DNA of 64,000 bases from Deinococcales bacterium (GCA_043778225.1 JAYWGM010000063.1:1-64000), one strand, 5' to 3'. Counted from the first letter of the stretch, positions 1 through 64,000 are shown. Notes: generated from the letters alone by a model not told the origin. Program-made: numbers and translations.

Positions 1-85
1 AACCGACTAAAAGGAGTGACAACGAAACCGAATTAACGTTTGAACGACAGTTTGACCGTTTTTTGGGCAAACGAGAGTGATTAAG

Positions 86-421
86 TTAATTCGGTATGAC
101 TTCGCTCCACCACCTAAGGCGCTGCAAATCGAGTTTGCCATGGCTCGAGAATACAATCCCCTCATACTCGAGCAAAACGCGCTGTAAGTCTCCAGTGCCG
201 ACTTTATAGGTGGATAACTTGCCACTTGAGGAGACGACGCGCTGCCATGGAATATCGGTGGCTTTTTCTTGTGAAATGCCGCGCAAAACATGACCAACGT
301 GCCGAGCGCGGCGTGGATAACCGCTCATCAGGGCAATACCGCCATAAGTTGCTACCCGACCAAGCGGAATTTGCTGCACCAATTCCAGCACTTTTAGACG
401 AAATTCTGGCTCGAGTTTCAT
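86..421 (-). CDS. Alkyltransferase-like (ATL/YbaZ, MGMT family) DNA-damage binding protein
   Basis: IPxGRVATYG and PWQRVV motifs, with Trp in place of the catalytic Cys; start set at MKLEPEF (421). Confidence 0.85.
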   Translation of the reverse strand: MKLEPEFRLKVLELVQQIPLGRVATYGGIALMSGYPRRARHVGHVLRGISQEKATDIPWQRVVSSSGKLSTYKVGTGDLQRVLLEYEGIVFSSHGKLDLQRLRWWSEVIPN

Positions 422-428
422 GCTGGCT

Positions 429-495
429 ATTGTCTCATGTTGTGATGCAGATTTCACATTGTCTCATGTTGCAGATTTCACATTGGCTCATGTTG
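429..495. repeat. Imperfect 24-bp tandem repeat (attgtctcatgttgcagatttcac, about 2.5 copies)
   Basis: Direct repeat visible in the divergent intergenic region. Confidence 0.8.
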
Positions 496-513
496 TGTCG
501 TAGAATCCGTGCG

Positions 514-2276: not shown

Positions 2277-2457
2277 GCCTAAAATCAACCCTAAGTACAT
2301 TGTAAACAAAAATCGTAGATTTTTGGCGAGCTATGCGAGTATTACCAAAGTACAGTGTTGATGGGTGCGGAGACTCTTTGGAGCGAAGCGGAAAATAGTC
2401 GAAGCATCTAATTTACACTGTACTAAGAATAATTGAACCAATAAAGTGAGGTCAGCG

Positions 2458-4146
2458 ATGAAATATATTTTTGTAACAGGTGGCGTGGTCTCGAGTTTAG
2501 GAAAAGGCATTACCGCCAGCAGTTTGGGCGCAATTTTACGCGCCCGTGGGCATCGGGTCACAGCCGTCAAAATAGACCCCTACATCAATCTCGATGCTGG
2601 CACGATGCGCCCCTACGAACATGGCGAAGTTTTTGTGACTGGTGACGGAGCAGAAACCGACCTCGACCTTGGCAATTATGAACGCTTTTTGGACATCGAC
2701 ACCAACCGAGGCAGCAACATCACCACTGGGCAAGTCTATAAAATCGTGATTGAACGCGAACGCAAAGGCGAGTATTTAAGCCAAACGGTACAAGTGATTC
2801 CACACATCACCGATGAAATTAAAAATCGTATTCGGGCGGTGGCTCTGGCAGCCAATGCTGATATTACCGTGATTGAAGTTGGCGGGACAGTTGGCGACAT
2901 CGAAAGTCTGCCGTTTCTCGAGGCAATCCGCACCATGCGTTTTGATGAAGCCTACGAAAACACAGCCTATTTGCACGTTACTTTAGCCCCCGAAGTCAGC
3001 ACTGGCGAAATTAAAACCAAGCCGACCCAACACAGTGTCGCTCAACTTCGCAGCACCGGTATCAGTCCAGATTTTATTGTGGTGCGTTCAAGTACGGCGC
3101 TGGGCGACGAGATGCGCCGTAAAATTGCGCTCTTTACCAGTGTCGAACCCGAGCGGGTGTACTCGAGTTTTAATGTTGAGTACCTTTATGAAGTACCATT
3201 AGCCTTTGAAGAACAAGGTTTGGGGCGTGAAATCGAAAAACGCCTCAAGCTCGAGACGATTCCACCTTCGCTTGGTTTTTGGCACGATGCCGTCAAAAAA
3301 CTAAAACACCCAACCCATCAGGTCAACATTGGTTTTGTTGGTAAATATGTCGCCATGGGCGACAGTTACCTCTCGATTCTCGAGGGATTACGCCATGCGG
3401 GTATCGCCAACGATACTCGGGTCAATATCCATTGGGTCAATGCCGAAGACTTAAAATCTGATGAAGATGCACAAGCTGCGCTTGCACCACTCGATGGCAT
3501 TTTGGTTGGACCTGGTTTTGGAATGCGCGGCATTGAAGGCAAAATCCGCGCGGCAAAATTTGCTCGGACACACCAAAAACCCTATTTTGGCATCTGCTTG
3601 GGCTTACAAATCGCGGTGATTGAATTTGCCCGCAATGTTGCCAATCTTGAAGGAGCAAACAGCACCGAATTTGACCAATACAGCAAGCACCCAGTCATTG
3701 GCATCATGCCCGAACAACTCGAGACTTCAAATCTGGGCGGTACAATGCGTCTTGGTGACTGGGAAATGTCGATTGTGGCTGGGACACGCCTCGAGAAAGT
3801 CTACGGCACATCTGGAACGGTTCTCGAGCGGCATCGCCACAGGTACGAAGTCAATCCAGACTATGTGGAACGCTTGGTCACGGCTGGCTTGGTGGTCAGT
3901 GCGGTCACCCCCGGCAAGGAACGGCGCGGCGCTGGCTTGGTCGAAGCGATTGAACTTGCCAATCATTCATTTTTTATTGGTTTGCAAGCCCACCCAGAAT
4001 TTAAGTCGCGCCCAATGCGGGTTTCGCCGCCGTTTAAGGCATTTGTTGCCGCCGCACTCGAGCATCGCACCGATGTGGGACTCGAGCAGCACCCTGAAAC
4101 TGGACTCGAGCAGCACCCTGATGTGGGACTCGAGCAGCGGACTTGA
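2458..4146 (+). CDS. pyrG: CTP synthase
   Basis: KYIFVTGGVVSSLGKG, GICLG, ERHRHRYEVN and HPEF motifs. Confidence 0.98.
   Translation: MKYIFVTGGVVSSLGKGITASSLGAILRARGHRVTAVKIDPYINLDAGTMRPYEHGEVFVTGDGAETDLDLGNYERFLDIDTNRGSNITTGQVYKIVIERERKGEYLSQTVQVIPHITDEIKNRIRAVALAANADITVIEVGGTVGDIESLPFLEAIRTMRFDEAYENTAYLHVTLAPEVSTGEIKTKPTQHSVAQLRSTGISPDFIVVRSSTALGDEMRRKIALFTSVEPERVYSSFNVEYLYEVPLAFEEQGLGREIEKRLKLETIPPSLGFWHDAVKKLKHPTHQVNIGFVGKYVAMGDSYLSILEGLRHAGIANDTRVNIHWVNAEDLKSDEDAQAALAPLDGILVGPGFGMRGIEGKIRAAKFARTHQKPYFGICLGLQIAVIEFARNVANLEGANSTEFDQYSKHPVIGIMPEQLETSNLGGTMRLGDWEMSIVAGTRLEKVYGTSGTVLERHRHRYEVNPDYVERLVTAGLVVSAVTPGKERRGAGLVEAIELANHSFFIGLQAHPEFKSRPMRVSPPFKAFVAAALEHRTDVGLEQHPETGLEQHPDVGLEQRT
4057..4140 (+). 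repeat. In-frame 24-bp repeat extending the PyrG C-terminus (GLEQHPxx)
   Basis: CTCGAG at 4057, 4081, 4105 and 4129 (24-nt period). Confidence 0.85.
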
Positions 4147-4183: not shown

Positions 4184-4259
4184 GGGTTGTTAGTTCAGTC
4201 GGTAGAGCGACGGTCTCCAAAACCGTAGGTCGGGGGTTCGAGCCCCTCACAACCCGCCA
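4184..4259 (+). tRNA. tRNA-Trp (CCA)
   Basis: Cloverleaf with GGGTTGT/ACAACCC acceptor stem, anticodon CCA at 4217-4219, TTCGA loop and encoded CCA end. Confidence 0.97.
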
Positions 4260-18552: not shown

Positions 18553-20142
18553 TTAGGGCAGTAAATTGGTGGCTAAACCAATCCGTATGTTGGGCAGGCG
18601 AATCAAACGCAAAGCCGCATCGCTCGGTGTGTCCGAGTCCGAACCCACCAGCACCAATTGGCTTGGGTTGCTACTCGAGCTTAACGCCGTGGCTCGAGCC
18701 AAACTGGCATCGGTGTTTTCCAGAATCGCTCGTGAAACTCGAGTGGCGGTGTCGGTTGCCACCAAAAAACTAAGTTTGAACTTAAAAATTTTTGATAACG
18801 GGTCGGCTGGCACTAAACGTCGTGGAATTCTGACCGCTACACTGACCAGCCCAGTGCCACCAGCCGCAATGCTGCGGCTTGAGCCATTTTTAGCCACATA
18901 GGCATAGTCCAAGATATTTTCGGTGGCACTTAGCATCCCAGCACCTCGAGCGGCGGTCTCGAGGGCGGTACTTTCTGAGATTCGGTATGCCTGAAAATCC
19001 GAGGCTAAGTTGTCCGGCACGGGGGCGGTTGCACCAAGCTGCATACCATGTAAAGGCACAATCTGCTGCCCAACGCTGGAGTCAGTATAAAGTGCGCCAT
19101 CTGGATTATTGGCATCTGGAAAAGCCCGAATGTCAAAAGCGGCGGTCTGCCCGATGTTTCCAGACTTAAAAATTGCCCGTAAACTCAAGTTCTCGAGTGG
19201 CTGACTGCTGAGGTTGGTAATGCGGTAGGTGGCGGTCAAATAGCGCACGCCAGCCGCTACATAATCTATATCGCTGTAGGTTAAAGGTAAAAAACTGACC
19301 TGTCCGCTCGAGTCGGTCTCTGCATTGCGCTGACTGGTATCCCATGCCAAATTAACCAAGCCAAGGGCTGTACTTTGAAGGGCGGTACTCGAGACCAAAA
19401 CCGTTTTGGTGACTGTTCCACCGTTGTTGCTGGCGGTTAAAGTAAAAATGGTGTTTTTGGCGACGTTGACTTGTACTGTACTACCAGTCACCACGCCAAT
19501 ATCTGGTGAAATACTCAGGGTTGTCGCACCAAGGGCAACCCACTCGAGCTTGACCAGTCCAGCCTCGAGATTGTCTGGCGTGGCGCTCAAACTCTGAATC
19601 ACGGGTGCGGCATCCTGCACAAATATCCCAACGGTTTTTGTGGTTGTACCACCCGCTCCTACGGCTGTGAGCGTATAGGTTTTACTGGTATTGACACTGA
19701 CCTCGAGACTGGTTTTACCAGTTACGTCGCTAATGCCGCCATCCATGCTTAGGCTGGTGCTGTTTTCGGTTGCCCAAGCCAAAGTGACCATACCGCCGCC
19801 AAAGGCAAGTGTGTTTGGGGTAGCGGTCAAACTCAAGATGGTTGGTGGGGCAGGGGCAACGGTCACTGCTACCGATTGATTAACACTGCCACCCGCATTG
19901 CTGGCGCTTAAAACAAAAATTGTGCTGCTCGAGATGATTAGGGTTTTTGAAGTTAAACCTGTCACATCTGTATCACCAAGACTCAAAGCCGTGGCGCGTT
20001 CGGTTGTCCACGATAGCAGCACCGCACCACCACCAAAAGGCAGACTGACTTTATCGGCGTTTAGACTCGAGATGACTGGCGGCTGAACTGGACAACCTAC
20101 CAACAGTAAAACTAAACTTAGCATCGCAAAAAATCGCTTCAT
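18553..20142 (-). CDS. Lipoprotein with three tandem ~80-aa Ig/PKD-like repeats
   Basis: Lipobox LLVGC; P-x-I-x-SL-x-A...L-x-W...F/YTLTA..GG unit repeated three times. Confidence 0.75.
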   Translation of the reverse strand: MKRFFAMLSLVLLLVGCPVQPPVISSLNADKVSLPFGGGAVLLSWTTERATALSLGDTDVTGLTSKTLIISSSTIFVLSASNAGGSVNQSVAVTVAPAPPTILSLTATPNTLAFGGGMVTLAWATENSTSLSMDGGISDVTGKTSLEVSVNTSKTYTLTAVGAGGTTTKTVGIFVQDAAPVIQSLSATPDNLEAGLVKLEWVALGATTLSISPDIGVVTGSTVQVNVAKNTIFTLTASNNGGTVTKTVLVSSTALQSTALGLVNLAWDTSQRNAETDSSGQVSFLPLTYSDIDYVAAGVRYLTATYRITNLSSQPLENLSLRAIFKSGNIGQTAAFDIRAFPDANNPDGALYTDSSVGQQIVPLHGMQLGATAPVPDNLASDFQAYRISESTALETAARGAGMLSATENILDYAYVAKNGSSRSIAAGGTGLVSVAVRIPRRLVPADPLSKIFKFKLSFLVATDTATRVSRAILENTDASLARATALSSSSNPSQLVLVGSDSDTPSDAALRLIRLPNIRIGLATNLLP

Positions 20143-20166
20143 GCCCTAGATTCTACAACCCAAAGG

Positions 20167-20922
20167 TTAAAACAAACCCTCGAGCTTGAACTTGCGCCCA
20201 GTCACAAATTCGAGTTGGGCGGATAAATGATGCGCCCTGATTTTTTTGTGCAGCACCACTTGCCCACCAATTCGCTCAAGCGCTACAGCTAAGGAACTTT
20301 CGCCAGCCACCTCGACCAAGGTGTGATAGGGCTGCAATAAACGTGGCTCGAGTCGCAGTTTGGCATCGCAAATCAGCAGTAAATCTGCCCGTTCTAAGGC
20401 TTCTAATAACGCAGCTTCCTCGAGGCTGATACAGCGCACCACCACACCGGCTGGGGCGTGTTTAGCAAGGCGTTCGGCATGAGGACGGTCTGGGGCAGCA
20501 ATCGTCAGGCTTTTGACCCCAGCGCGAGCCACTTGCACTGCCGCACTGGCACTTGCGCCACCGCCAAGCACCACGGCATTTGCCCCAAAACCACGGTATT
20601 TAATGCTCTCGAGGGCGGCTAATAAACCATCTTCTAAGGTGTGCGAGCCTTGTGTGCCGCGAGTCACACTGATGGCATCCAATGCCCCATCACGCTCGCT
20701 ACTGCTCGAGAGACCATCCACCAAAGTCAGGGCTTCGGTACTTGCCCCACCAATAAAAACCGCCCCTAAGAAACCCAAAGGCTCGAGACCCTGCACCACC
20801 GCTCCAAGTTTGGCGCTGGTTGGCACAAGGGTCGGTAAAAACTGTGCCTCGAGTTTGTAAAGGGCGGTCACGATTGGGGCGGCTTCTGCGCCAAGAAACG
20901 CCACGGGTTTTAAGGTATTCAT
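20167..20922 (-). CDS. Divergent shikimate dehydrogenase-like protein
   Basis: AroE-like layout with a Rossmann VLGGG motif; canonical catalytic motifs eroded. Confidence 0.6.
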   Translation of the reverse strand: MNTLKPVAFLGAEAAPIVTALYKLEAQFLPTLVPTSAKLGAVVQGLEPLGFLGAVFIGGASTEALTLVDGLSSSSERDGALDAISVTRGTQGSHTLEDGLLAALESIKYRGFGANAVVLGGGASASAAVQVARAGVKSLTIAAPDRPHAERLAKHAPAGVVVRCISLEEAALLEALERADLLLICDAKLRLEPRLLQPYHTLVEVAGESSLAVALERIGGQVVLHKKIRAHHLSAQLEFVTGRKFKLEGLF

Positions 20923-21175
20923 GTTCAATGGCAAGTATACGACCATCCGCCTGTGTTGGATTGCAGGCGGTACTTTATGATTGTGGTCAACTCGAATATG
21001 ATTTCGTAAAAATTTCGGTAGTACAGCTAGAAAGCATACAGACGATTGTTCAGAAATTGAGCTTTTGGTGTGTCTCGAGCTAATCTAGAAAGTGCGCCAT
21101 AGCGTCTATTGGTCGGTCCAGTTGCGTTTAGTCTAAGCAATTTGCAGTATCCTATTGGTCTACGGAGGTTGGCTT

Positions 21176-22021
21176 ATGAAAATAAAACTTTTAGCGGCAC
21201 TTGGCTTGGTTGGTATGACGGTACTTGGTTTTAGCTCTGGGGCGCAGAACATGACAAAATACGGCGATTGTACGATTACGGGCATGATGGGTTCGATGAA
21301 ATTTACACCTGCGATTGCTGGGCAACTCACTGTCCAAACCAATTTGCCAAGCCCGGGTTTTTACAACGGCGACTCGCCAGAACTGGTCAAGAGCGGCGTT
21401 GAATACTGCATGGCTGCCAACATCGCACATCGGGCGGGACTCGAGAAAGTGGTGGTTCAAAATGTCGCGTGGGACGGTTTGGTGGCTGGACAGACCAAAG
21501 ATTTTGACTTGGCAATGAGCCAAATTTCAATCACTGCCGAGCGCAAAAAAGTGGTCGAATTCAGCACGCCGTATTTCTCGAGCGACATTGGGGTATTGGT
21601 GCGTAAAGGCTTTAAGGTTGACGAAAAAAGTATCAAAACCGCCAAAATCGGTGTACAGCAAGGCACAACTGGCGAAAAATTTGCTCGAGAAACCTTAAAA
21701 ATTAAAAACGTTAAGGTTTTCCCAGATACCCCCGGAATGTTTGTGGCGCTCCAAGCCAAACAAGTGGACATCGCCATGACCGACACCAGCATTGTTTTAT
21801 CGCAAGCCAAGCAATCGGCTGGCAAGTTTGAAGTCGTTGGGCAGTACAAAACTGGCGAAAGCTACGGCGCATTGTTTCCAAAAGCTGGCAAAAATAACAA
21901 AGCCATCAACACCATCCTGCAAGAAATGCTCAAAGATGGCACAGTCGCCAAACTCGTTGGGCAGTATCTCTCGAGCGAATGGGGCGTTGACCCACTGAAA
22001 ATCAAGTATTTCAAACCTTAA
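21176..22021 (+). CDS. Polar amino acid ABC transporter substrate-binding protein
   Basis: Signal peptide, ISITAERKKVVEFSTPY and GVQQGTT motifs. Confidence 0.92.
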   Translation: MKIKLLAALGLVGMTVLGFSSGAQNMTKYGDCTITGMMGSMKFTPAIAGQLTVQTNLPSPGFYNGDSPELVKSGVEYCMAANIAHRAGLEKVVVQNVAWDGLVAGQTKDFDLAMSQISITAERKKVVEFSTPYFSSDIGVLVRKGFKVDEKSIKTAKIGVQQGTTGEKFARETLKIKNVKVFPDTPGMFVALQAKQVDIAMTDTSIVLSQAKQSAGKFEVVGQYKTGESYGALFPKAGKNNKAINTILQEMLKDGTVAKLVGQYLSSEWGVDPLKIKYFKP

Positions 22022-22027
22022 AAGCTC

Positions 22028-22095
22028 AGGTAAAAAGGGTAAAAGGTCAAAAGGATAAAAGTTTGACCTTTTTACCCTTTGACCTTTTACCCTTC
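22028..22095. repeat. Inverted array of 7-8 bp repeats (aaaagggt / accctttt)
   Basis: Purine-rich array followed by its complement. Confidence 0.75.
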
Positions 22096-22098
22096 TCT

Positions 22099-23262
22099 AT
22101 GCTTCCAGACCGTTCAGCGCGTTTTCGCGCTCCAAGTATCCCCAAAAGCGCCATGCCTTTGTCGCTGGCAGCTTTACTTGTCTCGAGCCTGACGATGCTT
22201 TTTGCTTGGTCGGTGGTTTGGCAATTGGCGCTGGCATTGGCTGGCGTGACTGAAGAAAATGTGGCGGCAGCAGTCGAAAAAAACCTCTATTGGTTTTTGA
22301 TGTGGTCTCGAGTCTCGGGTTTACCTTTTTTGGCTTGGGTGGGGCTGGTGGGGCTGGCGATTGTGCCACTTTTACTATTTATTCCAGCTTTTCGTGGGCT
22401 TTCTGCGGCGGCTCGAGCCAAAAATGCAAGACTTAAAGATGATTTAATCCTGGCTCGAGTCGAATCAGCCGACTCGAGTAATTCGGCTTGGTTTACCATC
22501 GGCTATGCAGTTTTTGCACTTTTGGCTTTCTCGAGCATTGGTTTTATGATTGCCAAAGATGTGGCGGTTGGCAACACTTTTTTTAAGCTCGATTTGATGC
22601 TTTCTAAAGCCGGTTTGGTCGGACAAGCGTTTTTGACCAATGTTTTTATTTTTATGGTAGCGCAGGTTTTTATTCTGGTTTGGGCATTGATTGTGGCACT
22701 TGCCCGTATGATTCCGGGGTCAGCCGGTCAGCCGATTCGCTTACTGGCAACGCTTTATACCGATGTTTTTCGTGGGCTACCGAGTGTGATTACGATTTAC
22801 CTGATTGGCTTTGGCTTGCCTTTAACTGGTTTTCCGATTCTTGGCGATTTATCACCAATTTGGTATGCGATTTTTGCCCTAATGCTAACTTACGGCGCAT
22901 ATGTTGCCGAAGTCTACCGCGCTGGCATCGAGAGCATTCACCCCAGCCAAATGATGGCAGCCCGCAGTCTGGGCTTAAACTTTTTTCAGACGATGCGCTT
23001 TGTGATTGTGCCGCAAGCCATCCGCCGAATTATCCCGCCACTCTTGAACGACTTTATTGGACTGCAAAAAGACACGGCTTTGGTCAATGTCATCGGCACA
23101 ATAGATGCTTTTAATCAAGCGCGGATTTTGGCAAGTAATAATTTTAATTTAAGTACGGTTACGATTGTGGCAATTTTATTTGTGCTGATTACGATTCCTC
23201 AAGCCAGATTTGTAGACCGCTTACTCGAGCAAGACGCGGCTAAAACCCGAGGCGCAAAATGA
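22099..23262 (+). CDS. Polar amino acid ABC transporter permease
   Basis: [16 protein letters not shown] and EAA-like AARSLGL motifs. Confidence 0.92.
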
Positions 23263-24002: not shown

Positions 24003-24005
24003 ATT

Positions 24006-24201: not shown

Positions 24202-25023
24202 TTAAAAAATAGCTTTTGAACTTTGCTCGAGTGGTTCAATGCCTAGAAATTCGCGGTAGATTCGTTCTTTATACGGCAGCCCGATTTCATTGATGGCTTG
24301 GATAAAGGCTGCATATGTGCCAACACCACCAATTTTATCCCAGAACTCCGCGCCAATCAGCACCACAGGGTCTTGTCTCATGTCAAACCAACGGGCTGGG
24401 AATGTCCACGCATAATCGGTTTTTGCGCCATATGGATTGTACGGCAGGGCATAATAGGCAGCGTCTATCGGTTTATTGTCCATCGCAAAGAGCTTAAAAA
24501 TTTTCTCTTTGCTTTGCTTGGTTTGGTCGCTATTTGGCAAGGGGGCTTTGAGTTCAAAAGCAAATCGCTCGCCTGTAGCTGTATCTTCGGTGCAAATATC
24601 ACAAACCACGGTCGCTGGTATCAGTTCGCCTTTTCCCTCGAGAATATAGTTAAGTTCGGTCTGCCAATTTGGTTTTTGGCGTTCGATGCCCACTTCTGGA
24701 TGCTCGAGTTTGTTTAAGACCTCTTGGATTCGCTGCAACCTGCCCATTCTGATATTCCCGCGGATAGTGTGCTGTTGGAGGCACTTTCCTAAACCTTGTT
24801 CGGCTGCAACGGCAGCTAGTTTTTTCCAAATATCACTAAAATGCTCGAGAAACTTCTTTTGAAGGAATGCAGCTTTTCTGATTTCTAAAGGAAGAAAAGC
24901 ATCAAAAAAAAGCCTGTTCTGTAGGCATTCAGTGCTTCCTAAAAACTCTTGTGTATCACAAGCAAGAAACTCTGTAAGTTGATTCTCAAGAGTCAAGAAA
25001 AACTTGTCTTTGAGTTTAGACAT
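24202..25023 (-). CDS. TdeIII-family type II restriction endonuclease-like protein
   Basis: PD-(D/E)xK-type CD...FELKAPLPNSDQTK, YYALPYNPYG and EFWDKIGG motifs. Confidence 0.75.
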   Translation of the reverse strand: MSKLKDKFFLTLENQLTEFLACDTQEFLGSTECLQNRLFFDAFLPLEIRKAAFLQKKFLEHFSDIWKKLAAVAAEQGLGKCLQQHTIRGNIRMGRLQRIQEVLNKLEHPEVGIERQKPNWQTELNYILEGKGELIPATVVCDICTEDTATGERFAFELKAPLPNSDQTKQSKEKIFKLFAMDNKPIDAAYYALPYNPYGAKTDYAWTFPARWFDMRQDPVVLIGAEFWDKIGGVGTYAAFIQAINEIGLPYKERIYREFLGIEPLEQSSKAIF

Positions 25024-43696: not shown

Positions 43697-44482
43697 CTAT
43701 CCTTGAAATCCGATGTTGTTTAGGTGCTGCTCGGCAACTTGACCAAGACATAAGCGAATTGTTGTGAAGAACGGTCTCCATTGATAATCTAAATAGCGAC
43801 TGATTAGGTTTAAGGTTACGTCACGGTTTGCAACTCGCCATTGTTTTTTATTGTGTTCTATATCTCTGAATATGATAAGTCGCTGTTGTGCAAGTCGGTC
43901 ACAGTTTAAGTTCAGTATTTTGATGGTGTTTTCAACTAATTCAAAAACACTGGTAAACTTGTTATCCTCTAAGTTAATGGTTTTACAGTGTTGTTCATTT
44001 GGCTCGAGGAATCCATTTGTTGGATTGAACTGAAATAAACAGGGTGATGGAATTATGGTTAATGGATTGAGAATAATGCCTTCGCAGTTTTTTGGTATTT
44101 TTCCAGCTTGTTCCATATGATTTTTATGCGAATCACAACTTAAATTTTCTTCCAATGGTGATAGAAAATTGGGAAGATTGGGATTGTCACCGCCATTACA
44201 AACCCCAATCATATTTGACCAAAGCAATGCCCAGTTTAGTGCCGAATCTGACGTATCTGACTTTGCATGAAAATGTTCTACTCGAGTCGTTAATGGTTCT
44301 GACGCTGAAATCTTGCATTCACAATAGGCACAGAGACCGTATTGGTCACTAATAATTTGGGTTCTAATGTTTTTATAAACATCTTCAAAATTCCTCAAAT
44401 CTTTCCAAGTGGCTTTTGGATTATTGCTTTCAAAGGCGGTTAATTCTTCTGGGGGAGTGGTATTTTTGAAAACTGGTTTCAT
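43697..44482 (-). CDS. HNH endonuclease, PtuB-like (Septu or retron type I-A effector)
   Basis: QYGLCAYCE, RVEHFHAKS, W.N....C.GG, SCD and TI.ILNLN motifs; ATGA-coupled to the ATPase. Confidence 0.85.
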   Translation of the reverse strand: MKPVFKNTTPPEELTAFESNNPKATWKDLRNFEDVYKNIRTQIISDQYGLCAYCECKISASEPLTTRVEHFHAKSDTSDSALNWALLWSNMIGVCNGGDNPNLPNFLSPLEENLSCDSHKNHMEQAGKIPKNCEGIILNPLTIIPSPCLFQFNPTNGFLEPNEQHCKTINLEDNKFTSVFELVENTIKILNLNCDRLAQQRLIIFRDIEHNKKQWRVANRDVTLNLISRYLDYQWRPFFTTIRLCLGQVAEQHLNNIGFQG

Positions 44483-45834
44483 TGATTCTGCTCCCAAATT
44501 CGGTTTTCAATAAATAAATCCGCTTCGAGTAAAGCAGGTTCTTCACCCAGATAACGTTGATCTAAAATAGTTCGCAATTCGATGGCTCGAGGCGAAGCCC
44601 ACTCATTTTTGAAAACAAGTTCTTGATATTCAAGCAGTTCTCGAGTTGCCATGTTTTTCTGAGGTCTTGGGTCAACTCCAAAAATGCGTTTTAGAATCCG
44701 ATTGGACTCTGCTCCTTCCGTACCAGAAGGGGTGAAAATTTGATTATTCTCAATAACTCGAATACATTCGGCGGGAACAGTTGATAACACTTGAGGGCTG
44801 TGGGTACTCACAATAAATTGAGTATTCGGAAAAGTACGTCGTAAATCCCCAAGAATTCGTTGCTGCCACATCGGATGCAAATGTAAATCTATTTCATCAA
44901 TAATCACAATGGCTTCTTGATGCAATGGGTTGATACCAGTAGCCTCAGATGGATTGGCTTGTGCCATCCGCAAAGATAAATCCATAGCCAGTGCCAGCAT
45001 GGTGCGGAAGCCATCACTAAGTTGTCCGAGCCTAAGGGTTTTGACTTCCCCATTTTCAAGTGTTTGATCTATGACAAATTGCAAGGGTTTAAGTTTGGTA
45101 CGTGGATTTGAAAAGCTGGGCAGCATGATTCTGATTGCTTCGCGCATGACTTTCAAATCAGGTAATTCATAGTTGAAATCCCTTAGTTCGCGCTGAGCAT
45201 GAAGCTCAAGCCGCTCAAGGTAATCAAAACGCTCGTAAATAGCGCGAAAATTGCTGGTTGCGCCAAACGCGCCTTCAAAAGCCTCGAAACGTCTAAATTG
45301 CTTGCGGAAGTCAGTACGGCGTTCAACCTCTGCCATAAATACCCTATTTGTACCGTAGTAACGAACCAGTGGGAGGGTGTAAGGTTTACCAGTTTTTTCT
45401 GCCTCCAGAAGACCAGAGATGAACTCATTAAAATTCTGCTTCAATTTAGCTATATCTTCTGGATTGCTAGCAGGTTTTCCTAGCTCCGCATCAAACTCAA
45501 ATTGGGGATAGACTTTTTTGACACTTTTGTCTTTGACTTTAATTGCTATTAACAGTGTTGAACCTTGAGTCGGCAAATATATTGATAATGAAATTTGCGC
45601 CAAGTCTGCACTTTGTTGATTCGTACCTATCTTAATGTCATTTGTGGTCATTGCTTTGCCATCGCGCTGAATCAAACCAGTTGCCATACGACTTAGGAGA
45701 AAATTTATTGCTTCAAGCACGGCTGTTTTTCCACCACCATTTTCAGATACAAAAACGGTTAATTTTGGATGGAACATGATCATTGCTTCTTGAAAACAAC
45801 GAAAAGTTGTTAGGTTTAGAGCTACTAGTTTCAT
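44479..45834 (-). CDS. ABC/AAA-type ATPase, PtuA-like
   Basis: Walker A ENGGGKT, signature LSDG, IDEIDLHLHP, STHSP and C-terminal EGAESNRILKRIFGVDPRP. Confidence 0.87.
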   Translation of the reverse strand: MKLVALNLTTFRCFQEAMIMFHPKLTVFVSENGGGKTAVLEAINFLLSRMATGLIQRDGKAMTTNDIKIGTNQQSADLAQISLSIYLPTQGSTLLIAIKVKDKSVKKVYPQFEFDAELGKPASNPEDIAKLKQNFNEFISGLLEAEKTGKPYTLPLVRYYGTNRVFMAEVERRTDFRKQFRRFEAFEGAFGATSNFRAIYERFDYLERLELHAQRELRDFNYELPDLKVMREAIRIMLPSFSNPRTKLKPLQFVIDQTLENGEVKTLRLGQLSDGFRTMLALAMDLSLRMAQANPSEATGINPLHQEAIVIIDEIDLHLHPMWQQRILGDLRRTFPNTQFIVSTHSPQVLSTVPAECIRVIENNQIFTPSGTEGAESNRILKRIFGVDPRPQKNMATRELLEYQELVFKNEWASPRAIELRTILDQRYLGEEPALLEADLFIENRIWEQNQ

Positions 45835-45878
45835 AAATCTCCATTATATTTTTGACTTTGCAGAATCTTGAGCAACAC

Positions 45879-46155
45879 AAAAACCCCAACAGACGCTTGT
45901 GCGTCATGCTGGGGCGCTAGTAATTGCGCGTTACCACCCAACTTCACTCGAGCCTTGCGGTTCTCGAGCCTTTATACCAACCATTGCGGATTGGTTTGCG
46001 CTGTATCGGGCGCACCCGAACGGTTCTACTCGAGAATAATTCTCTTTCTTCCATCTGCTCGGAGGTGATGTTGGCTCGAGTTCGTGTCCATCGGCGCTTT
46101 CACCGTCCGCCGTTCGCTGTTGGTCGTGTCTCGAGTTACGTCCTCGTCGTTGCGG
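45879..46155 (-). ncRNA. T-box riboswitch, Ile (AUC specifier), transcriptional type
   Basis: T-box AAGTTGGGTGGTAACGCG (45927-45944) with antiterminator partner CGCCCC; terminator CCCCAGCA...TGTTGGGG-T5; stem I AGCGA/GGTGAAAG elements; ATC specifier at 46067-46069. Confidence 0.9.
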
Positions 46156-46160
46156 CTATC

Positions 46161-46190
46161 AGTGTACGGACTCGAGGTAGGGCGTGTCAA
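46161..46190 (-). promoter_or_regulatory. Sigma70-type promoter of the T-box leader
   Basis: TTGACA-18-TACACT. Confidence 0.8.
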
Positions 46191-46206
46191 CGTGGTAGAA
46201 TGGCGT

Positions 46207-46788
46207 ATGCGTTCCGCACCTGTAAAAACAGCTTTGTCTTTTGACCAATTTCTCGAGTTCGAGATTTCCAGTCTTGAGCGCCATGAGTTCGTGGATGGTA
46301 ATCTGTTTGTTATGGCGGGTGGGACAGATAAACAAAATCATTTGATTGGCGAATTGTATATTTCGCTCAAAGCAGTGGCTCGAGCGGCTGGTTTTCGGGT
46401 TTATATGAGTGATGTGTTAATTCGCACCCCCGACGATGTGGGTTATTACCCTGACGTTTATGTGGCTCGAGATGAAATTGGCGATTCTCCTCGGGTTAAA
46501 CGTCATCCGATTGTGATTATTGAAGTCTTGTCTTCAAGTACCGAAATTTTTGACCGTGGTGAAAAATGGCACAACTATCAGACTATTCCAAGCCTCGAGC
46601 AGTATGTCTTGTTGTCGCAGTCTGAGCCACTTGCCGAAATGTACACAAGGCAAGCCGATGGTTCGTGGCGTTATCAATCATTTTCTGGTGCGTCGGTGCT
46701 TCATTTCTCGAGCCTCAATTTTGATTTGCCGCTTGAGTCTTTGTATACAGATTTACCTGCCAACGAAAACCAATCAACTCGAGCTTAA
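46207..46788 (+). CDS. Uma2 family (DUF820) endonuclease-like protein
   Basis: RHEFVDG..MAGG, YYPDV, IEVLSSST..FDRGEK...Y motifs. Confidence 0.9.
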   Translation: MRSAPVKTALSFDQFLEFEISSLERHEFVDGNLFVMAGGTDKQNHLIGELYISLKAVARAAGFRVYMSDVLIRTPDDVGYYPDVYVARDEIGDSPRVKRHPIVIIEVLSSSTEIFDRGEKWHNYQTIPSLEQYVLLSQSEPLAEMYTRQADGSWRYQSFSGASVLHFSSLNFDLPLESLYTDLPANENQSTRA

Positions 46789-46818
46789 CGTGTTCCCGAG
46801 TTGATTGGTTTTTGGTTT

Positions 46819-48303
46819 TTACTTGCCAATCAGGTTATCAAACCCAAACAGGTAATGCTGGGTATTGCGGTTTTTGCTGCTCATTTCTTTGGCTGTGCCT
46901 ATTTCGATGCGCTCTTTGACATCGGTGCTGACTAAACCAATTTCTTCGCCAGATTTTTGTGGGGCAGTTAAGCGCAAAGTCTTGACTCCGAGTATTGGCT
47001 CACTGCTTTGGGCGGAAGCCGCAAGGTTCGTGCTTTCGTGTGGAAATTTGTAATTGCTGGGGTCGCGCCACTCGCCTACTACATTTGTGCCAAGCGGATA
47101 AATCCAACCAGCCACATATAACCTGTTGCCATAAGCTGCGATTCCCATCGTGTGATCCATTGCTACGACATCTTGTTGCGTGCCAGTAAAATGAAACAGT
47201 TCGCGCTCGAGTTTTCCATCGAAGTTGTATTGTAGTAAGGCACTGTCGCCAAACTGATAATCGGCTTGGGTGTACTCTTGGAAACCAACTCGCCCACCAA
47301 GATAAACTTTATCGCCAATTACGCGCACCACTCGAGCGTTGTTGCGGTCATTGCGAACTCCAGCGTTATAGCGCCGCCCCCAGAGAACTTTGCCATTGGG
47401 GTCGAGCTTAAAAAGCTCGAGATAGGTTTGTGTGCCGTGGACATCGCTGGCGGCGTACAGATTGCCATTGGCATCCAAGTCAAGGTCGGAAATCGTGCTG
47501 CCACGGGTTTCTTGGGGCATTTCTTTTGCCCATAAAAACTCGAGTTTATCGTTGGCTACACCAAGTTTTAGGATTTGTCCGCGACCTGTGCGTCCGTTCC
47601 AACCGCCTAAATAAATGGTTGTTCCAGCTGGATTTGCCACTAAGCTAAATACGCGGTCATTGCTGCCGGGCGTTGGGTCTATGGTCAAGGCATCGAGTTG
47701 ATTGCCGTTGTTTGCGTCCAGAATACTGACCAGAATTTGGGCTTCGTCGCCAGCATCGCCGCCGCCACCCGCAACATAGACTCGGTTGCCAACTACGGTC
47801 ACACTCGAGGCATTGGTTGTGCCGTTGGCTTGATTTTTCCAATGTGGTCGCCAAGCTTTGCTCCATAGTATCTCGCCGTTGGCAGACAGTTTAACCACAA
47901 TTTGTGTCTGTGGTTCGGCATTGATTTTCCAAGCGGCTCGAGCCACCACATAGACACTGTTTTGGGCATCGGTGGCAATTGCACGGCTGGTTGCCCCATG
48001 GTCGCCATCAATGTAGCGCATTGGGGAGTCTAAGCCGGGTGTGCCAATGTTTTTTGCCCAGAGCAGTTCGCCGGTGGGCGATAATTTACTGACCAATAAA
48101 TCGCCGTAATACGAATCCACAAAACTTTTGGAAACCCCAACCGTCAGGGCATTGCCGCTCGAGTCTAACGCTAAGCCGTTCAGGACATCCGAGCTATTGC
48201 CGCCCCAGACGCGCTCAAGGCTTGGTTTTAGGGTGGTGGTTTGAGCAAAAGCAAAGATACATAGTCCAATGGCGAGGGTGGTGGTTTGAATAATTTTTTT
48301 CAT
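46819..48303 (-). CDS. Secreted beta-propeller repeat protein
   Basis: Signal peptide; repeated D..GN.Y / KL.P.G..LW blades; GGAGG RBS. Confidence 0.7.
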   Translation of the reverse strand: MKKIIQTTTLAIGLCIFAFAQTTTLKPSLERVWGGNSSDVLNGLALDSSGNALTVGVSKSFVDSYYGDLLVSKLSPTGELLWAKNIGTPGLDSPMRYIDGDHGATSRAIATDAQNSVYVVARAAWKINAEPQTQIVVKLSANGEILWSKAWRPHWKNQANGTTNASSVTVVGNRVYVAGGGGDAGDEAQILVSILDANNGNQLDALTIDPTPGSNDRVFSLVANPAGTTIYLGGWNGRTGRGQILKLGVANDKLEFLWAKEMPQETRGSTISDLDLDANGNLYAASDVHGTQTYLELFKLDPNGKVLWGRRYNAGVRNDRNNARVVRVIGDKVYLGGRVGFQEYTQADYQFGDSALLQYNFDGKLERELFHFTGTQQDVVAMDHTMGIAAYGNRLYVAGWIYPLGTNVVGEWRDPSNYKFPHESTNLAASAQSSEPILGVKTLRLTAPQKSGEEIGLVSTDVKERIEIGTAKEMSSKNRNTQHYLFGFDNLIGK

Positions 48304-59070: not shown

Positions 59071-59147
<77 letters not shown>

Positions 59148-59190: not shown

Positions 59191-59282
59191 TGGCGGAGGG
59201 AGAGAGATTCGAACTCTCGGTACAAATTTCTTCGTACGACGGTTTAGCAAACCGTTGGTTTCAACCGCTCACCCATCCCTCC
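59191..59282 (-). tRNA. tRNA-Ser (GCT)
   Basis: Cloverleaf with long variable arm, loop TT-GCT-AA and GCCA end. Confidence 0.96.
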
Positions 59283-59308: not shown

Positions 59309-59398
59309 TGGCGGAGGGTGAGGGATTCGAACCCCCGGTAGAGTTCCCCCTACTACAGTTTTCAAGACTGTCGCCTTCAACCGCTCGGCCAACCCTCC
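59309..59398 (-). tRNA. tRNA-Ser (TGA)
   Basis: Cloverleaf with long variable arm, loop CT-TGA-AA and GCCA end. Confidence 0.96.
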
Positions 59399-60016: not shown

Positions 60017-60017
60017 A

Positions 60018-61055: not shown

Positions 61056-61970
61056 GTGATTTTCTTGTTTTCTCGAGCCTTACAAACCCTGATGGTGCTG
61101 TGGTTGGTTGGCACGATTGCTTTTTTGGCATTGCACGTGGCTGGCGACCCCGTTTCGCTGCTGGTGTCCGAGGATGCGACCCCACTCGAGCGCCAGACCT
61201 TACGCCAAGCCTACGGACTCGAGCAGCCTCTTTTGGTGCAGTATTTTATTTTTTGGAAAAACGCGGCTCAAGGCGAACTGGGTAATTCTTTTTATAGCCA
61301 GCAAAGCGCCATGCACCTTTTGCTCGAGCGTTTGCCAGCCACGCTTGGCTTGGTACTGCTCGGTTTAACTTTGGGGCTGCTGCTCGGTGTGCCACTTGGC
61401 GTGTTGAGTGCGGCTAAAGCTGGCTCGAGCTTTGACCGAATTTTACAGGGTTTGTGTGCCGTATTTATCAGTGCGCCAAGTTTTTGGATTGGTATCGTTT
61501 TGATTCATCTTTTTGCTGTCCAATGGCGACTTTTGCCATCTCAGGGCAGTGGTACGGTCTGGCATCTTATTTTGCCAGCCGTCACGTTGGCGTTGCCTCG
61601 AGCCGCTGTCTATGTGCAAATTTTGCGCCTCGAATTGCTCGAGGTTCTCAGTCAAGATTTTATCCGCACCGCTCGAGCCAAAGGTGTCCTCGAGACTCGG
61701 GTGCTGTACCATCATGCCCTTCGCAATTGTTTTGTGCCGTTTGTGACGGTTTTTGGTTTGCAACTCTCGGGCTTACTGTCTGGGGCAGTCATCACCGAAA
61801 GTTTATTTGCGTACCCCGGCATGAACCGCTTGGCATTGGATGCGATGAATCGTTTGGATATTCCAGTTATTTTGGCATTTGTGCTGCTCAGTGCTTTTTT
61901 ATTTGCGAGCATTAACTTCTTAACCGACCTTGGCTATGTGTTGATTGACCCTCGTGTGCGCTATGAATAA
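61056..61970 (+). CDS. Peptide/nickel ABC transporter permease (DppB-like)
   Basis: GDPV, ERLPAT, TARAKG and GAVITE.LF..PG motifs. Confidence 0.92.
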   Translation: MIFLFSRALQTLMVLWLVGTIAFLALHVAGDPVSLLVSEDATPLERQTLRQAYGLEQPLLVQYFIFWKNAAQGELGNSFYSQQSAMHLLLERLPATLGLVLLGLTLGLLLGVPLGVLSAAKAGSSFDRILQGLCAVFISAPSFWIGIVLIHLFAVQWRLLPSQGSGTVWHLILPAVTLALPRAAVYVQILRLELLEVLSQDFIRTARAKGVLETRVLYHHALRNCFVPFVTVFGLQLSGLLSGAVITESLFAYPGMNRLALDAMNRLDIPVILAFVLLSAFLFASINFLTDLGYVLIDPRVRYE

Positions 61971-62775
61971 AAAGAACATTTTTTATGCGGCACTGCCGCT
62001 CTTGTTTTTTCTTGGCTTGGCGGTCTTGGCTCGGGTTTTTTTGCCAAACCCCAACAATCAGAACTTACTCGAGACCCTACAAGCTCCTTTTGGCACACAT
62101 TGGCTTGGTACAGACGAACTTGGGCGTGATGTTTTCGGGCTTTTGCTGCACGGCTTAGGGATTTCGCTCTTGGTTGGCTTGCTGTGCAGCCTGATTTCGG
62201 CAGCCATTGGCGTACCATTGGGTTTATTGGCGGGGCTGCGCGGCGGTTGGCTCGAGATCATCATCATGCGGGCTATCGAAGTCCAAATGGCACTGCCGAC
62301 GGTTTTACTGGCGCTGGTGACACTAGCGTTATTGGGGGCTGGACTCGAGAATCTAATTGTGATTATCGGCGTTTTTGGTTGGGCTGGCTTTGCTCGTTAT
62401 ACCCGAGCCACGGTTTTGGTACAGCGCCAACTCGAGTATGTGCTGGCAGCCCAAGCCTTGGGTGCAAATGACTGGCGCACCATTTTGCGCCATGTGTTGC
62501 CCAATGTTGCCAGTGGGATTTTATTGCAAATCAGCCTCGATTTTCCGCAGAACATTCTGCTCGAGGCAAGTCTGTCTTTTTTAGGTGTGGGGGTTGGCGT
62601 AGACACCCCAAGCCTTGGCGCGATGGTCTCGAGGGGTTATGGCTATTTACTGAGTGGCGCATGGTGGCTCAGTCTTTTGCCCGGAGGGTTTATTATGTTG
62701 CTGGTGTTAAGCACCAATCGGCTGACTGAAGCCATTCGGGTCGGTTTAGACCCAAGAGCCAAGCCAGAACGTTAA
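61963..62775 (+). CDS. Peptide/nickel ABC transporter permease (DppC-like)
   Basis: HWLGTDELGRD, AAQALGA and EASLSFLG motifs. Confidence 0.92.
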   Translation: MNKKNIFYAALPLLFFLGLAVLARVFLPNPNNQNLLETLQAPFGTHWLGTDELGRDVFGLLLHGLGISLLVGLLCSLISAAIGVPLGLLAGLRGGWLEIIIMRAIEVQMALPTVLLALVTLALLGAGLENLIVIIGVFGWAGFARYTRATVLVQRQLEYVLAAQALGANDWRTILRHVLPNVASGILLQISLDFPQNILLEASLSFLGVGVGVDTPSLGAMVSRGYGYLLSGAWWLSLLPGGFIMLLVLSTNRLTEAIRVGLDPRAKPER

Positions 62776-63302
62776 TTTTTGAGCAGCAGACTTGTAAAGT
62801 GCTTACGGGCTTTTGCCACCTTGGGCGCAACCACACCGATACAGTAGCCCTGAAATTGATTGCGGGCATAATAATTTTGGTGGTAGGTCTCGGCGGGGTA
62901 AAAGATTTTTAGCGGTTCAAGTTGGGTCACGATTGCTTGGTCATAAACACTCGAGAAGGCTTGAATCACGGTTTTTGCGATTTCGAGTTGCGATTGGCTA
63001 TGGGTCAAAATAATGCTGCGGTAACTCTCGCCGATGTCGTTGCCTTGGCGGTTGAGCGTCGTCGGGTCATGAATCGTAAAAAAGACATTCAGCAGGTTCT
63101 CAAAACTGATTTCAGTGTTCTCAAATTCAACTTGTGTCACCTCGGCATGACCTGTGGTTTCGCTACAGACCGCCTGATAGGTTGGATTGGTCGTGTGACC
63201 GCCAGCATAGCCACTGACAACCTTTCTAACGCCACGAAGCTCGAGAAATACCGCCTCGAGACACCAAAAGCAGCCACCGCCTAATGTTGCCGTTTCAATC
63301 AT
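62772..63302 (-). CDS. msrA: Peptide methionine sulfoxide reductase A
   Basis: GGCFWC, GHAE, HDPT..NRQGND and AE.YHQ.Y motifs. Confidence 0.96.
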   Translation of the reverse strand: MIETATLGGGCFWCLEAVFLELRGVRKVVSGYAGGHTTNPTYQAVCSETTGHAEVTQVEFENTEISFENLLNVFFTIHDPTTLNRQGNDIGESYRSIILTHSQSQLEIAKTVIQAFSSVYDQAIVTQLEPLKIFYPAETYHQNYYARNQFQGYCIGVVAPKVAKARKHFTSLLLKN

Positions 63303-63349
63303 GGTTAGAGTTTAGCCAATTCAAAGGCATATGAACAGAGACGGGCTAC

Positions 63350-64000
63350 TCATTTCAAATACTTATCGCTCGAGAATGACCCACCCAAAACCTGTTGGCT
63401 CGAGACACCCAGCCAGTTCTCGAGGGCTTGTCCGTAGACACCGCGAAAATCGGTGCTGAATCTTAAATCGCCATTGTCAAGTTTCTCGAGGTCTGGGGCT
63501 GTGCCATGGATACCACCCAGCACGCCATTTCCAAGGGCAAACATGATGCTGGCTTTACCGTGGTCTGTGCCAGAACTGGCATTTTCGGCAACCCGCCGAC
63601 CAAATTCCGAGAAACCCAAGACCAGCACATCGTTGGCGCGTCCTTGGGTCTCGAGGTCGGCGCGAAAGGCTTCAAGGCTCGAGGACAGGTCGGCAAGCAA
63701 TTTGGGATGGTCTTCTGGTTGTGCCGCGTGGGTGTCGTAGCCACCCTGCTGCACATAGTAAACCCGTAAGCCAAGGTCGGTGCTGATGAGCCGTGCCACA
63801 TCGCGCAAATTGTTGGCTAAGCCAGATTTTGGATAAGTCGCGCCAGCTTTATATTTTTGTAAGTTCTTTTGTACCCGAGCCGTGTTCTCGAGCAACGATA
63901 AAGTATTGCGGCGCAGCAAATCGGTCTTGCCTTTGTCGCTGTAGCCCTCGACTGGATACGACAATAAATCCTTATACGCCGCATCGAGTTTAGGCTCGAG
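63350..64000 (-). CDS. DUF1501 family protein (5' part lies outside the window)
   Basis: GGYDTH, SEFGRR..EN...GTDHG and DFRGVY motifs. Confidence 0.85.
   Translation of the reverse strand, partial: LEPKLDAAYKDLLSYPVEGYSDKGKTDLLRRNTLSLLENTARVQKNLQKYKAGATYPKSGLANNLRDVARLISTDLGLRVYYVQQGGYDTHAAQPEDHPKLLADLSSSLEAFRADLETQGRANDVLVLGFSEFGRRVAENASSGTDHGKASIMFALGNGVLGGIHGTAPDLEKLDNGDLRFSTDFRGVYGQALENWLGVSSQQVLGGSFSSDKYLK

Follow-up and report, generated by a model that had tools for sequence, protein, structure and literature searches.

In a 64,000-base stretch of DNA from an uncultured Deinococcales bacterium (GCA_043778225.1, JAYWGM010000063.1:1-64000; the whole stretch is called the window below), the palindromic hexamer CTCGAG recurs about seven times in every kilobase. 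We find that the genome to which the window belongs holds this word at about 27-fold excess, and that it is kept there by a directional pressure on the DNA itself, equal in genes and in spacers. The word marks every member genome of its family, and in the Deinococcota it looks like the counterpart of HIP1 (GCGATCGC), a highly iterated palindrome (HIP) of cyanobacteria.

Abundance of CTCGAG in the window and in the genome

The window contains 445 CTCGAG sites (6.95/kb; 20-33 per 4-kb bin), where its mononucleotide composition predicts 15.1, a 29.5-fold excess. CTCGAG is by far the top hexamer of the window, and the runners-up are words that overlap it. A preliminary description of this DNA had counted about 62 sites in the first 10 kb and had put the density across the window at about 6/kb, some 25-fold above chance. 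The first 10 kb hold exactly 62 sites, so that its count is right. The same description placed the sites in all three frames, on genes of both strands and in intergenic DNA, which the frame counts bear out:

1..64000, genes of both strands: CTCGAG by frame, with 248 sites read as CTC-GAG (Leu-Glu), 68 as xCT-CGA-Gxx, 82 as xxC-TCG-AGx, and 47 lying outside the 47 listed open reading frames (ORFs)

Most of these ORFs are housekeeping genes by their Pfam matches, and site density in the window is 7.09/kb in coding and 5.99/kb in non-coding DNA.

The genome studied (G000) is a metagenome-assembled genome (MAG) of 4.03 Mb in 107 contigs, 89% complete, with 48.7% GC and no 16S rRNA gene found in it. 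It carries 24,877 CTCGAG sites, 6.17/kb or about one per 160 bases, which is 26.7-fold over the mononucleotide and 47.5-fold over the first-order Markov (Markov-1) expectation. Density is the same in the coding set (6.18/kb in 3,315 crude ORF calls of at least 120 amino acids) and in the remaining, non-coding 12% (6.15/kb). Absence from other contigs had been named beforehand as grounds for abandoning the idea; all contigs longer than 3 kb have 4.0-10.6 sites/kb. Positions 20001-30000 of the window are moreover reproduced by Logan contigs of two public runs, in one of which (X1; an 8,271-base contig and its neighbours) there are zero letter differences. The two runs are possibly the source samples, and the comparison, made with contigs only, therefore offers an independent assembly rather than an independent sample. 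Since these contigs agree, and since relatives from other studies carry the same word, the CTCGAG excess is not an assembly artefact.

The repeated unit is exactly 6 bp long, as the ten positions on each side carry at most 0.033 bits. A longer repeat or a mobile element was considered and rejected on the strength of these flanks, in which complementary letters stand on both sides at only 4,778 of the 24,877 sites. The bias also singles out one word among close relatives: 68% of the TCGA tetramers of G000 sit within CTCGAG, and the other three palindromes of the form NTCGAN have hardly any copies (34, 49 and 224).

Null models and neighbouring words

Shuffling synonymous codons within genes gives 2,335 coding sites where 21,964 are observed, a 9.4-fold excess (7.9-, 11.7- and 14.5-fold by frame); a codon permutation gives 1,024, and drawing codons from the usage outside the sites, with all proteins kept, gives 827. 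A dicodon-preserving null is tautological in the CTC-GAG frame and was applied to the two off-frames, which span three codons; there the observed 4,440 and 4,556 sites compare with 2,688 and 2,199 from a dicodon chain. The dicodon CTC-GAG occurs 12,968 times, against 553 under independent codons, and its reverse GAG-CTC 21 times. In the non-coding DNA, 2,920 sites stand against 93 expected from mononucleotides (31-fold), 71 from a Markov-1 and 224 from a Markov-2 model (13-fold), and they outnumber all 18 one-letter neighbours taken together (1,696). Put into a simple mutation-bias model, these non-coding counts would give, as a rough estimate, a scaled per-site advantage near 3.4. Deviations by one letter fall somewhat more often on the outer positions, 1 and 6, which account for 3,058 of the 6,934 deviants per strand. 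The neighbours that differ by a T:G mismatch, CTTGAG/CTCAAG and TTCGAG/CTCGAA, are not depleted; at an observed/expected ratio (o/e) of about 1.4 they are the highest among the neighbours (CTTGAG/CTCAAG, 1.40-1.42).

We can practically dismiss the idea that the excess merely follows from a bias in codons, dicodons or oligonucleotides, or from the purging of other palindromes, with no force on the word itself: CTC and GAG are indeed common codons in high-GC relatives, G000 avoids most other palindromes, and a true phage met in a viral scan (L304/L305) has 23 of its 29 coding CTCGAG sites in the Leu-Glu frame, much as codon usage would give, but the 9.4- to 27-fold excess over amino-acid-preserving nulls, the off-frames above the dicodon chain, the non-coding excess, the 21 copies of GAG-CTC and a doubling of the Leu-Glu dipeptide itself all speak against it. 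A codon or dicodon artefact is ruled out by the shuffle, permutation and dicodon-chain nulls together, and the earlier view that codon bias is insufficient thereby survives the comparison on which it had been staked.

Effect on proteins

The word was said from the start to shape protein sequence, and its imprint is large. Among the 18,754 Leu-Glu pairs of G000, 12,968 (69.1%) are written CTCGAG; the word also lies in 4,440 of the 7,859 [SPTA]-R-[VADEG] triplets (56.5%) and in 4,556 of the 10,880 x-S-[SR] triplets (41.9%). Leu-Glu is the most over-represented dipeptide of the genome (o/e 2.33), with Glu-Leu at 0.97. The Leu-Glu ratio is 2.17 in G013, which belongs to another genus of the same family, 0.93 in the Deinococcus-like genome G044 and 1.17 in pooled named Deinococcus loci.

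Alignment of orthologues, proposed earlier as a check for directional gain of sites, points the same way. Over the aligned columns of 67 reciprocal-best orthologues between G000 and G044 (52% identity), Leu-Glu is counted 483 times in G000, 214 times in G044 and 110 times in both. Only 22% of the CTCGAG-encoded Leu-Glu pairs of G000 align to Leu-Glu in G044, and the Glu of such pairs is conserved in 38.5% of cases, vs 56.6% for other Glu. As judged from one outgroup and crude gene calls, amino acids have therefore been replaced to create CTCGAG, and the CTCGAG sites of G000 are derived relative to Deinococcus. This is a measurable cost and a clear case of a DNA-level pressure overriding protein sequence, with 69% of Leu-Glu codons fixed and the dipeptide doubled.

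Conservation and placement of the sites

Within the genus, we compared 85 orthologous fragments of window positions 1-34000 (83% amino-acid identity; four-fold sites outside the word 46% identical). Between 55 and 62% of the G000 sites recur at the matching position of the relative. Among places where suitable amino acids are encoded in both genomes, the probability of a site in the relative is 0.72-0.81 with a G000 site and 0.15-0.33 without one (odds ratios 5.5, 7.1 and 22), and the codons are conserved at 61-69% inside CTCGAG vs 22-30% for the same codons outside it. In the other genus (G013; 175 orthologues, 62% identity), 23%, 13% and 20% of sites are common by frame; the conditional probabilities of the main frame are 0.45 vs 0.41 (odds ratio 1.2), and the off-frames have odds ratios of 1.7 and 3.5. 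Sites are thus protected in the short term yet turn over, so that positions are nearly independent between genera at constant density. From the sharing within the genus, the near-independence between genera and the constant density it follows that the pressure is on having CTCGAG and not on its location.

Placement along the genome is close to random. The variance-to-mean ratio of G000 counts is 1.00 at 1 kb, as for a Poisson process, 1.48 at 5 kb and 1.63 at 20 kb (in a MAG of 107 contigs). From about 60 bp onwards the pair correlation stays at 1.0-1.1, a period of 3 is the only one seen, and no helical or other preferred spacing appears up to 400 bp, nor any evenness at the kilobase scale; at these short ranges, the search for spacing periodicity that had been suggested for these sites came out negative. 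CTCGAG pairs less than 20 bp apart are under-represented, with ratios of 0.36-0.46 in coding and 0.61-0.78 in non-coding DNA, so that this deficit is mostly a coding effect. No two sites are spaced by 6, since such a pair would contain GAGCTC, a word with 24 copies in the genome.

Distribution in the family and the phylum

To find relatives and loci for comparison we used one marker gene of the window:

2446..4146, plus strand: pyrG (CTP synthase), identified by Pfam

The relatives of pyrG at 72-93% identity are all records named 'MAG: Deinococcales bacterium', from several studies; named Deinococcus come next, at 64-68%. The 17 loci of the uncultured group (GC 46-61%) carry 4.0-9.8 CTCGAG/kb, and the 37 Deinococcus loci (at most about 21 kb each) 0-8 sites per locus, mostly 0. 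All 18 other genomes of the family as defined by GTDB, from five genera, have 12,028-35,442 sites, or 4.3-6.8/kb on rounded genome sizes. Except for the closed G013, the family genomes are MAGs that are 57-94% complete, which makes the gene absences reported below soft.

We extended the survey to 150 further genomes of the phylum, all of one GTDB order. Genus g7 (77 genomes) has 26-1,010 CTCGAG sites per genome and, since it behaves like the named Deinococcus loci, is probably Deinococcus. Genus g9 (27 genomes) has 1,455-2,803, roughly equal to the reversed control word GAGCTC. Genera g13, g22 and g23 reach 1.4-3.4/kb, 4-43 times the control, and families f4 and f2 0.7-2.9 and 0.6-2.4/kb. The low counts extend to all 77 g7 genomes, a genus-wide constancy that is unusual for ordinary restriction avoidance.

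A further comparison ordered the 4,096 hexamers by z-score within samples of 17-400 kb. Of 19 samples taken outside the family, 13 have CTCGAG in first place, among them the first 50 kb of two plasmids of cultured Thermaceae, pMESIL01 of Allomeiothermus silvanus (3.7-fold) and pOCEPR01 of Oceanithermus profundus (7.8-fold). Its ranks in the remaining six are 3, 19, 89, 196, 209 and, in G044, 4,045. Most other families of the phylum thus have it as their top hexamer, at 5-10-fold. In four 100-kb samples outside the family, the off-frames exceed synonymous shuffles (12-32 observed vs 0.7-5.8 for xCT-CGA-G, and 10-39 vs 2.8-7.8 for xxC-TCG-AG), and the non-coding density is 1.5-2.6/kb. The family of the window is therefore the extreme of a graded, phylum-wide bias which Deinococcus inverts; an earlier guess that relatives of the Meiothermus type might share the word was apt, in that most other families of the phylum show the bias in weaker form.

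Avoidance and exemption both concern the full palindrome. In G044 (400 kb), 1,024 of 1,548 TCGA tetramers are half-sites (CTCGAH or DTCGAG) and only 27 are CTCGAG, and the avoidance there is therefore specific to the full palindrome. In Thermus thermophilus HB8 plasmid pTT27 (positions 1-50000), TCGA is avoided (49 copies, o/e 0.35), with 45 of the 49 copies inside CTCGAG and a single half-site; the purge of TCGA spares the full palindrome. Taking pTT27 with two g9 samples, TCGA stands at an o/e of 0.35-0.58, and 92%, 60% and 62% of the remaining TCGA are within CTCGAG.

A scan of viral contigs for CTCGAG triplets gave at least 80 loci, among which most rich contigs are high in GC and rich in GAGCTC as well. 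One IMG/VR contig (L311/L312; 110 kb, GC 0.64) has 5.4-7.2 CTCGAG/kb in its first 10.5 kb, in three frames and in spacers, with zero GAGCTC. In that 10.5 kb no phage structural genes were recognised and no match to G000 proteins was found; the contig may stem from a related lineage, as an element or as a piece of host DNA.

Other palindromes, restriction genes and imported DNA

The enrichment of CTCGAG stands out in a genome that removes most other palindromes. Across its 4 Mb, G000 has no more than 28 copies each of 14 other palindromic hexamers (among them GGGCCC 1, GACGTC 1, GGCGCC 3 and CTGCAG 13), GGCC has 131 copies (2 in the window), GATC has an o/e of 0.13, and the window is devoid of GAGCTC, CTGCAG, GACGTC and ATCGAT. 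After CTCGAG, the next most favoured palindrome reaches an o/e of only 1.7. This near-total purge is accompanied by a heavy restriction load, including a TdeIII-type gene in the window. G013 purges a partly different set of palindromes. Because the purged set varies between genera while the CTCGAG excess is constant across the family, the former tracks the changeable restriction repertoire and the latter argues for a stable, core cause.

The features of the window that bear on restriction and on local lack of the word are:

24202..25023, minus strand: TdeIII-type type II restriction endonuclease gene (PF09520, E 1.7e-50)
43697..45947, minus strand: motif-poor island with ORFs 43697-44497 (no Pfam match; 2.5 sites/kb) and 44479-45834 (1.5 sites/kb)
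4184..4256, plus strand: tRNA gene without CTCGAG
59074-59147, 59194-59282 and 59312-59398: three more tRNA genes without CTCGAG

By Pfam, ORF 44479-45834 encodes an AAA_21/SMC_N ATPase of the AbiEii type. The largest CTCGAG-free gap of the window (1,307 bp, 44640-45947) lies inside the island, and the lowest GC of the window (0.451, bin 44001-48000) is found there as well; the island is probably DNA acquired more recently. Genes that seem of recent acquisition are poorer in the word, with 0-2.7 CTCGAG/kb in several restriction-modification genes of G000 and 1.5-2.5/kb in the island at 43.7-45.9 kb. The 68 tRNA genes of the genome contain 6 CTCGAG sites vs 32.6 expected at genome density.

Four further observations concern other features of the window and the genome. 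The Uma2 family of putative nucleases (PF05685; window 46084-46788) has 34 matches in G000 and 4-39 in the family genomes, and is reportedly expanded in cyanobacteria; as a correlate of the bias it was rejected as not specific, having also 29-35 matches in two f2 genera, 7-19 in g9, 0-9 in g7 and none in f4. An element of about 65 bp at window 22028-22094, between an ABC substrate-binding gene and a permease gene, can form a hairpin from inverted arms with A-runs on one side and T-runs on the other; with about 40 more copies on other contigs of G000 (74-93% identity) and a few in relatives, it looks like a dispersed repeat of the repetitive extragenic palindromic (REP) or miniature inverted-repeat transposable element (MITE) kind. 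The 726-aa ORF at 27303-29483 combines an N-terminal Clp_N with a C-terminal Peptidase_S51 domain (cyanophycinase/dipeptidase E type). On another contig of G000 (C79, L001; 51352-55119), an N4/N6 methyltransferase gene and an unannotated 324-aa ORF, probably its endonuclease partner, lie between genes for NADH dehydrogenase iron-sulfur subunits and appear to have been inserted in the nuo operon.

Searches for candidate enzymes

G000 has about 24 DNA methyltransferase genes of five Pfam families, several of them beside EcoRV, EcoO109I, HNH and PD-(D/E)XK restriction genes. Its TaqI_C-type methylase was rejected as the cognate enzyme, being found in 2 of 12 sampled family genomes and in 0 of 48 others; its PDB matches are generic gamma-class methylases, and the NCBIfam names of the candidates are generic only. 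The three best orphan methylases were rejected too, with patchy orthologues in 6, 4 and 3 of the 18 other family genomes. When the PF01555, PF00145, PF07669 and PF02086 genes of five diverse family genomes were clustered with 19 G000 candidates, no group at 40% identity or more, in any of these four families, was common to more than 2 of the 6 genomes. Closed G013 has no PF01555 gene and G010 no PF00145 gene, and PF02384 has no match in G002 and two weak ones only in G006. It therefore appears that no methyltransferase is shared across the family, as far as soft MAG absences, non-orthologous enzymes of the same specificity and unrecognised families allow. The XhoI endonuclease family has no match in G000, but the same search matched no control genome and so says little.

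Vsr (PF03852) was found in 0 of 19 family genomes, and control genomes were matched. Since T:G-mismatch neighbours are not depleted either, an origin in very-short-patch repair lacks support. AddAB-like genes (PDDEXK_1) have no match in 7 of the 13 family genomes searched (G000, closed G013, G009, G010, G007, G002 and G014), and are present as ORFs of about 800-1,250 aa in 12 of 12 sampled genomes in each of the families f2, f4 and f5; because of these absences, and because CTCGAG is symmetric, a Chi role for it lacks support. The import channel ComEC (PF03772) is intact in 18 of 19 family genomes; its complete copies are open over 561-824 aa. The preliminary description had supposed a methylation, repair, uptake or chromosome-organisation system analogous to that of HIP1. 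Its likeness to HIP1 has held up; the orphan CTCGAG or TCGA methyltransferase that it proposed to look for did not emerge as a family-wide gene, and repair of the Vsr type found no footing.

What maintains CTCGAG

The pressure may be pictured as a weak, uniform, per-site bias in favour of CTCGAG, resembling biased gene conversion and imposed by a conserved, putative sequence-specific protein; the symmetry of the word is what would be expected of a dimer reading a 6-bp palindrome. If we had to guess, it would act during the uptake or recombination of DNA of the same species. Fragments or alleles bearing CTCGAG would be taken up or integrated more often and would so spread by molecular drive, as has been proposed for the DNA uptake sequences (DUS) and uptake signal sequences (USS) of other bacteria and for HIP1. 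We hold such a drive, with no sign of a dedicated conserved methyltransferase, to be a real though tentative possibility, short of probable. It is placed first because it needs no methylase, because USS are a precedent for the rewriting of proteomes, and because it agrees with the current reading of HIP1. Uptake in Thermus and Deinococcus is not known to be sequence-specific, and the lack of an excess in these two genera is a further, post hoc reason.

Several points weigh against this drive. CTCGAG has as yet no known uptake bias, receptor or binding protein, and the data would fit biased repair of heteroduplexes, or plain selection for density, as well as they fit uptake drive. A palindrome of 6 bp that recurs six times per kb would resemble no known uptake signal, and the spacing of the sites is no more even than random at the kilobase scale, so that a classic hallmark of uptake signals is gone. 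ComEC also occurs in lineages without the CTCGAG bias, which makes it necessary and not specific, and the incompleteness of the MAGs keeps the gene absences soft. Finally, the effect of HIP1 on transformation is described as methylation-dependent (10.1101/2024.09.10.611283), and no shared methyltransferase was found here.

Biased repair of mismatches or heteroduplexes within the cell, by an enzyme that reads the word on one strand and corrects the other towards CTCGAG, would be a neutral drive, and we regard it as rather unlikely, although much of the pattern suits it. Deinococcus and Thermus are polyploid, and in polyploid cells with frequent gene conversion between genome copies such a bias would by itself suffice to fill a genome. 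The pressure is weak, uniform per site and equal in coding and non-coding DNA, placement is Poisson, positions turn over at constant density, and deviants are commoner at the outer positions, as for HIP1. The model that Elhai sets out for HIPs is of the same kind, a neutral repair-type drive, but in the account given it needs a cognate methylase (PMC4390886), and none is shared here. No candidate enzyme is at hand, Vsr was found in none of the 19 family genomes, and the T:G neighbours are not depleted.

A closer analogue of the cyanobacterial HIPs, in which a methyltransferase specific for CTCGAG or TCGA would mark the sites, and selection or creation would act on the word in its methylated form, strikes us as doubtful. 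In its favour, each cyanobacterial HIP is said to be accompanied by a cognate methylase (PMC4390886, in its treatment of the HIPs), and the HIP1 effect on transformation depends on methylation. CTCGAG methylases of the N6-methyladenine (m6A) and 5-methylcytosine (m5C) kinds exist outside this lineage, the latter in Halorubrum (PMC8112702). G000 itself has some 24 methyltransferase genes, and enzymes of one specificity need not be orthologous or of a recognised family. Against this stand the patchy TaqI_C-type and orphan candidates, the lack of any group in more than 2 of 6 genomes, and the gaps in PF01555 (G013), PF00145 (G010) and PF02384 (G002, G006); the unmatched XhoI endonuclease adds little.

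Least probable of the explanations by a force on the word, and in our view improbable, is that CTCGAG is the binding word of an abundant nucleoid-associated or chromosome-organising protein whose site density is selected. A palindromic hexamer would suit a dimeric DNA-binding protein, and density is conserved while positions are not; a role in nucleoid or chromosome structure has been argued for HIP1 by Xu et al. 2018 (PMC5861425). Preferred spacing up to 400 bp is missing, however, counts per kb are Poisson, there is no candidate protein, and the reversal of a core function in Deinococcus would be odd.

If uptake or recombination drive is taken as the cause, it can be carried back through the phylum. 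CTCGAG might then be the methylase-free self-recognition word of an uptake or recombination system ancestral to the Deinococcota, weak in most Thermaceae-type lineages, runaway in this uncultured freshwater family, where about half of Leu-Glu would have been rewritten, and reversed in Deinococcus. We put this forward as a speculation that is on balance unlikely. The cultured relatives in which CTCGAG ranks first would make the question of HIP and DUS function directly testable outside cyanobacteria.

Significance

To our knowledge, cyanobacteria are so far the only group from which HIPs have been reported, and a link between HIP function and transformation is just emerging, 30 years on. The present case, independent of the first, denser, and built on another word in a different phylum, makes the phenomenon more general, and the apparent lack of a dedicated methylase would make it separable from its methylase link. 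Because the bias is graded in cultured Thermaceae and inverted in Deinococcus, its cause can be approached by comparative genomics and bench work. On the practical side, a local lack of CTCGAG flags imported DNA in these genomes, and the density of XhoI sites matters for cloning from them. We found no published description of the CTCGAG excess in full-text searches; the text of Elhai 2015 (PMC4390886) contains neither CTCGAG nor any word beginning with Deinococc. What is new here is the lack of a family-wide methyltransferase and of Vsr in the genomes searched, with AddAB-like genes missing from most of those examined for them, the persistence of sites within a genus with turnover between genera, and the breadth of the bias in the phylum.

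Comparison with known systems

The HIPs of cyanobacteria, described in the relevant parts of two papers as palindromes over-represented 15- to 300-fold (PMC4390886; PMC5861425), are the closest parallel. HIP1 and CTCGAG are both short, GC-containing palindromes found in all frames and in spacers throughout a lineage. The excess of CTCGAG is at least 15-fold genome-wide and goes beyond codon usage in all frames and in non-coding DNA; its codons are more conserved inside the word than outside, by the test that Xu et al. report for HIP1 (PMC5861425), and its one-letter deviants are commoner at the outer positions, as Elhai is cited as having seen for HIP1. A cognate methyltransferase wherever the word is frequent, which is the rule for HIPs, was in contrast not found for CTCGAG among orthologous enzymes. 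A quasi-periodic distribution over 10-90 kb also belongs to the HIP description; for CTCGAG the statistics covered short ranges, with counts in bins of 1, 5 and 20 kb. CTCGAG differs further in belonging to another phylum, in being a 6-mer and not an 8-mer, in its several-fold higher density (6/kb), at which 69% of Leu-Glu pairs are taken up by the word and the dipeptide itself is doubled, in its near-independent positions between genera, and in being purged by the sister lineage Deinococcus. HIP1 is now argued to act in transformation (10.1101/2024.09.10.611283; PMC13756078), and the first of these sources also likens it to Chi.

The DUS of Neisseriaceae and the USS of Pasteurellaceae are 9-12 nt long, not palindromic, occur about once per kb and often form inverted pairs in terminators. 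Like them, CTCGAG is a dense, lineage-specific word that occurs in both orientations and within genes, where it shapes peptides; it is scarce in DNA that looks recently acquired, molecular drive without benefit to the cell could explain it, and the competence protein ComEC is present, though ComEC does not discriminate between lineages with and without the bias. Its 6-bp palindromic form and its Poisson rather than unusually even placement set it apart from these asymmetric words.

With Chi, CTCGAG shares over-representation as a short word that would mark self DNA; Chi is asymmetric and strand-oriented, whereas CTCGAG is palindromic in a family in which AddAB-like genes are missing from 7 of 13 genomes searched. 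Very-short-patch repair enriches CCWGG in E. coli, where the effect is small and the T:G neighbour words are depleted. There, too, a repair bias raises the target word of a methylase, but in the family of the window none of 19 genomes has a Vsr match, and the neighbour words show no depletion. Restriction-site avoidance, finally, discriminates just as sharply among 6-bp palindromes, with the sign reversed: CTCGAG is the one that is enriched, 27- to 47-fold.

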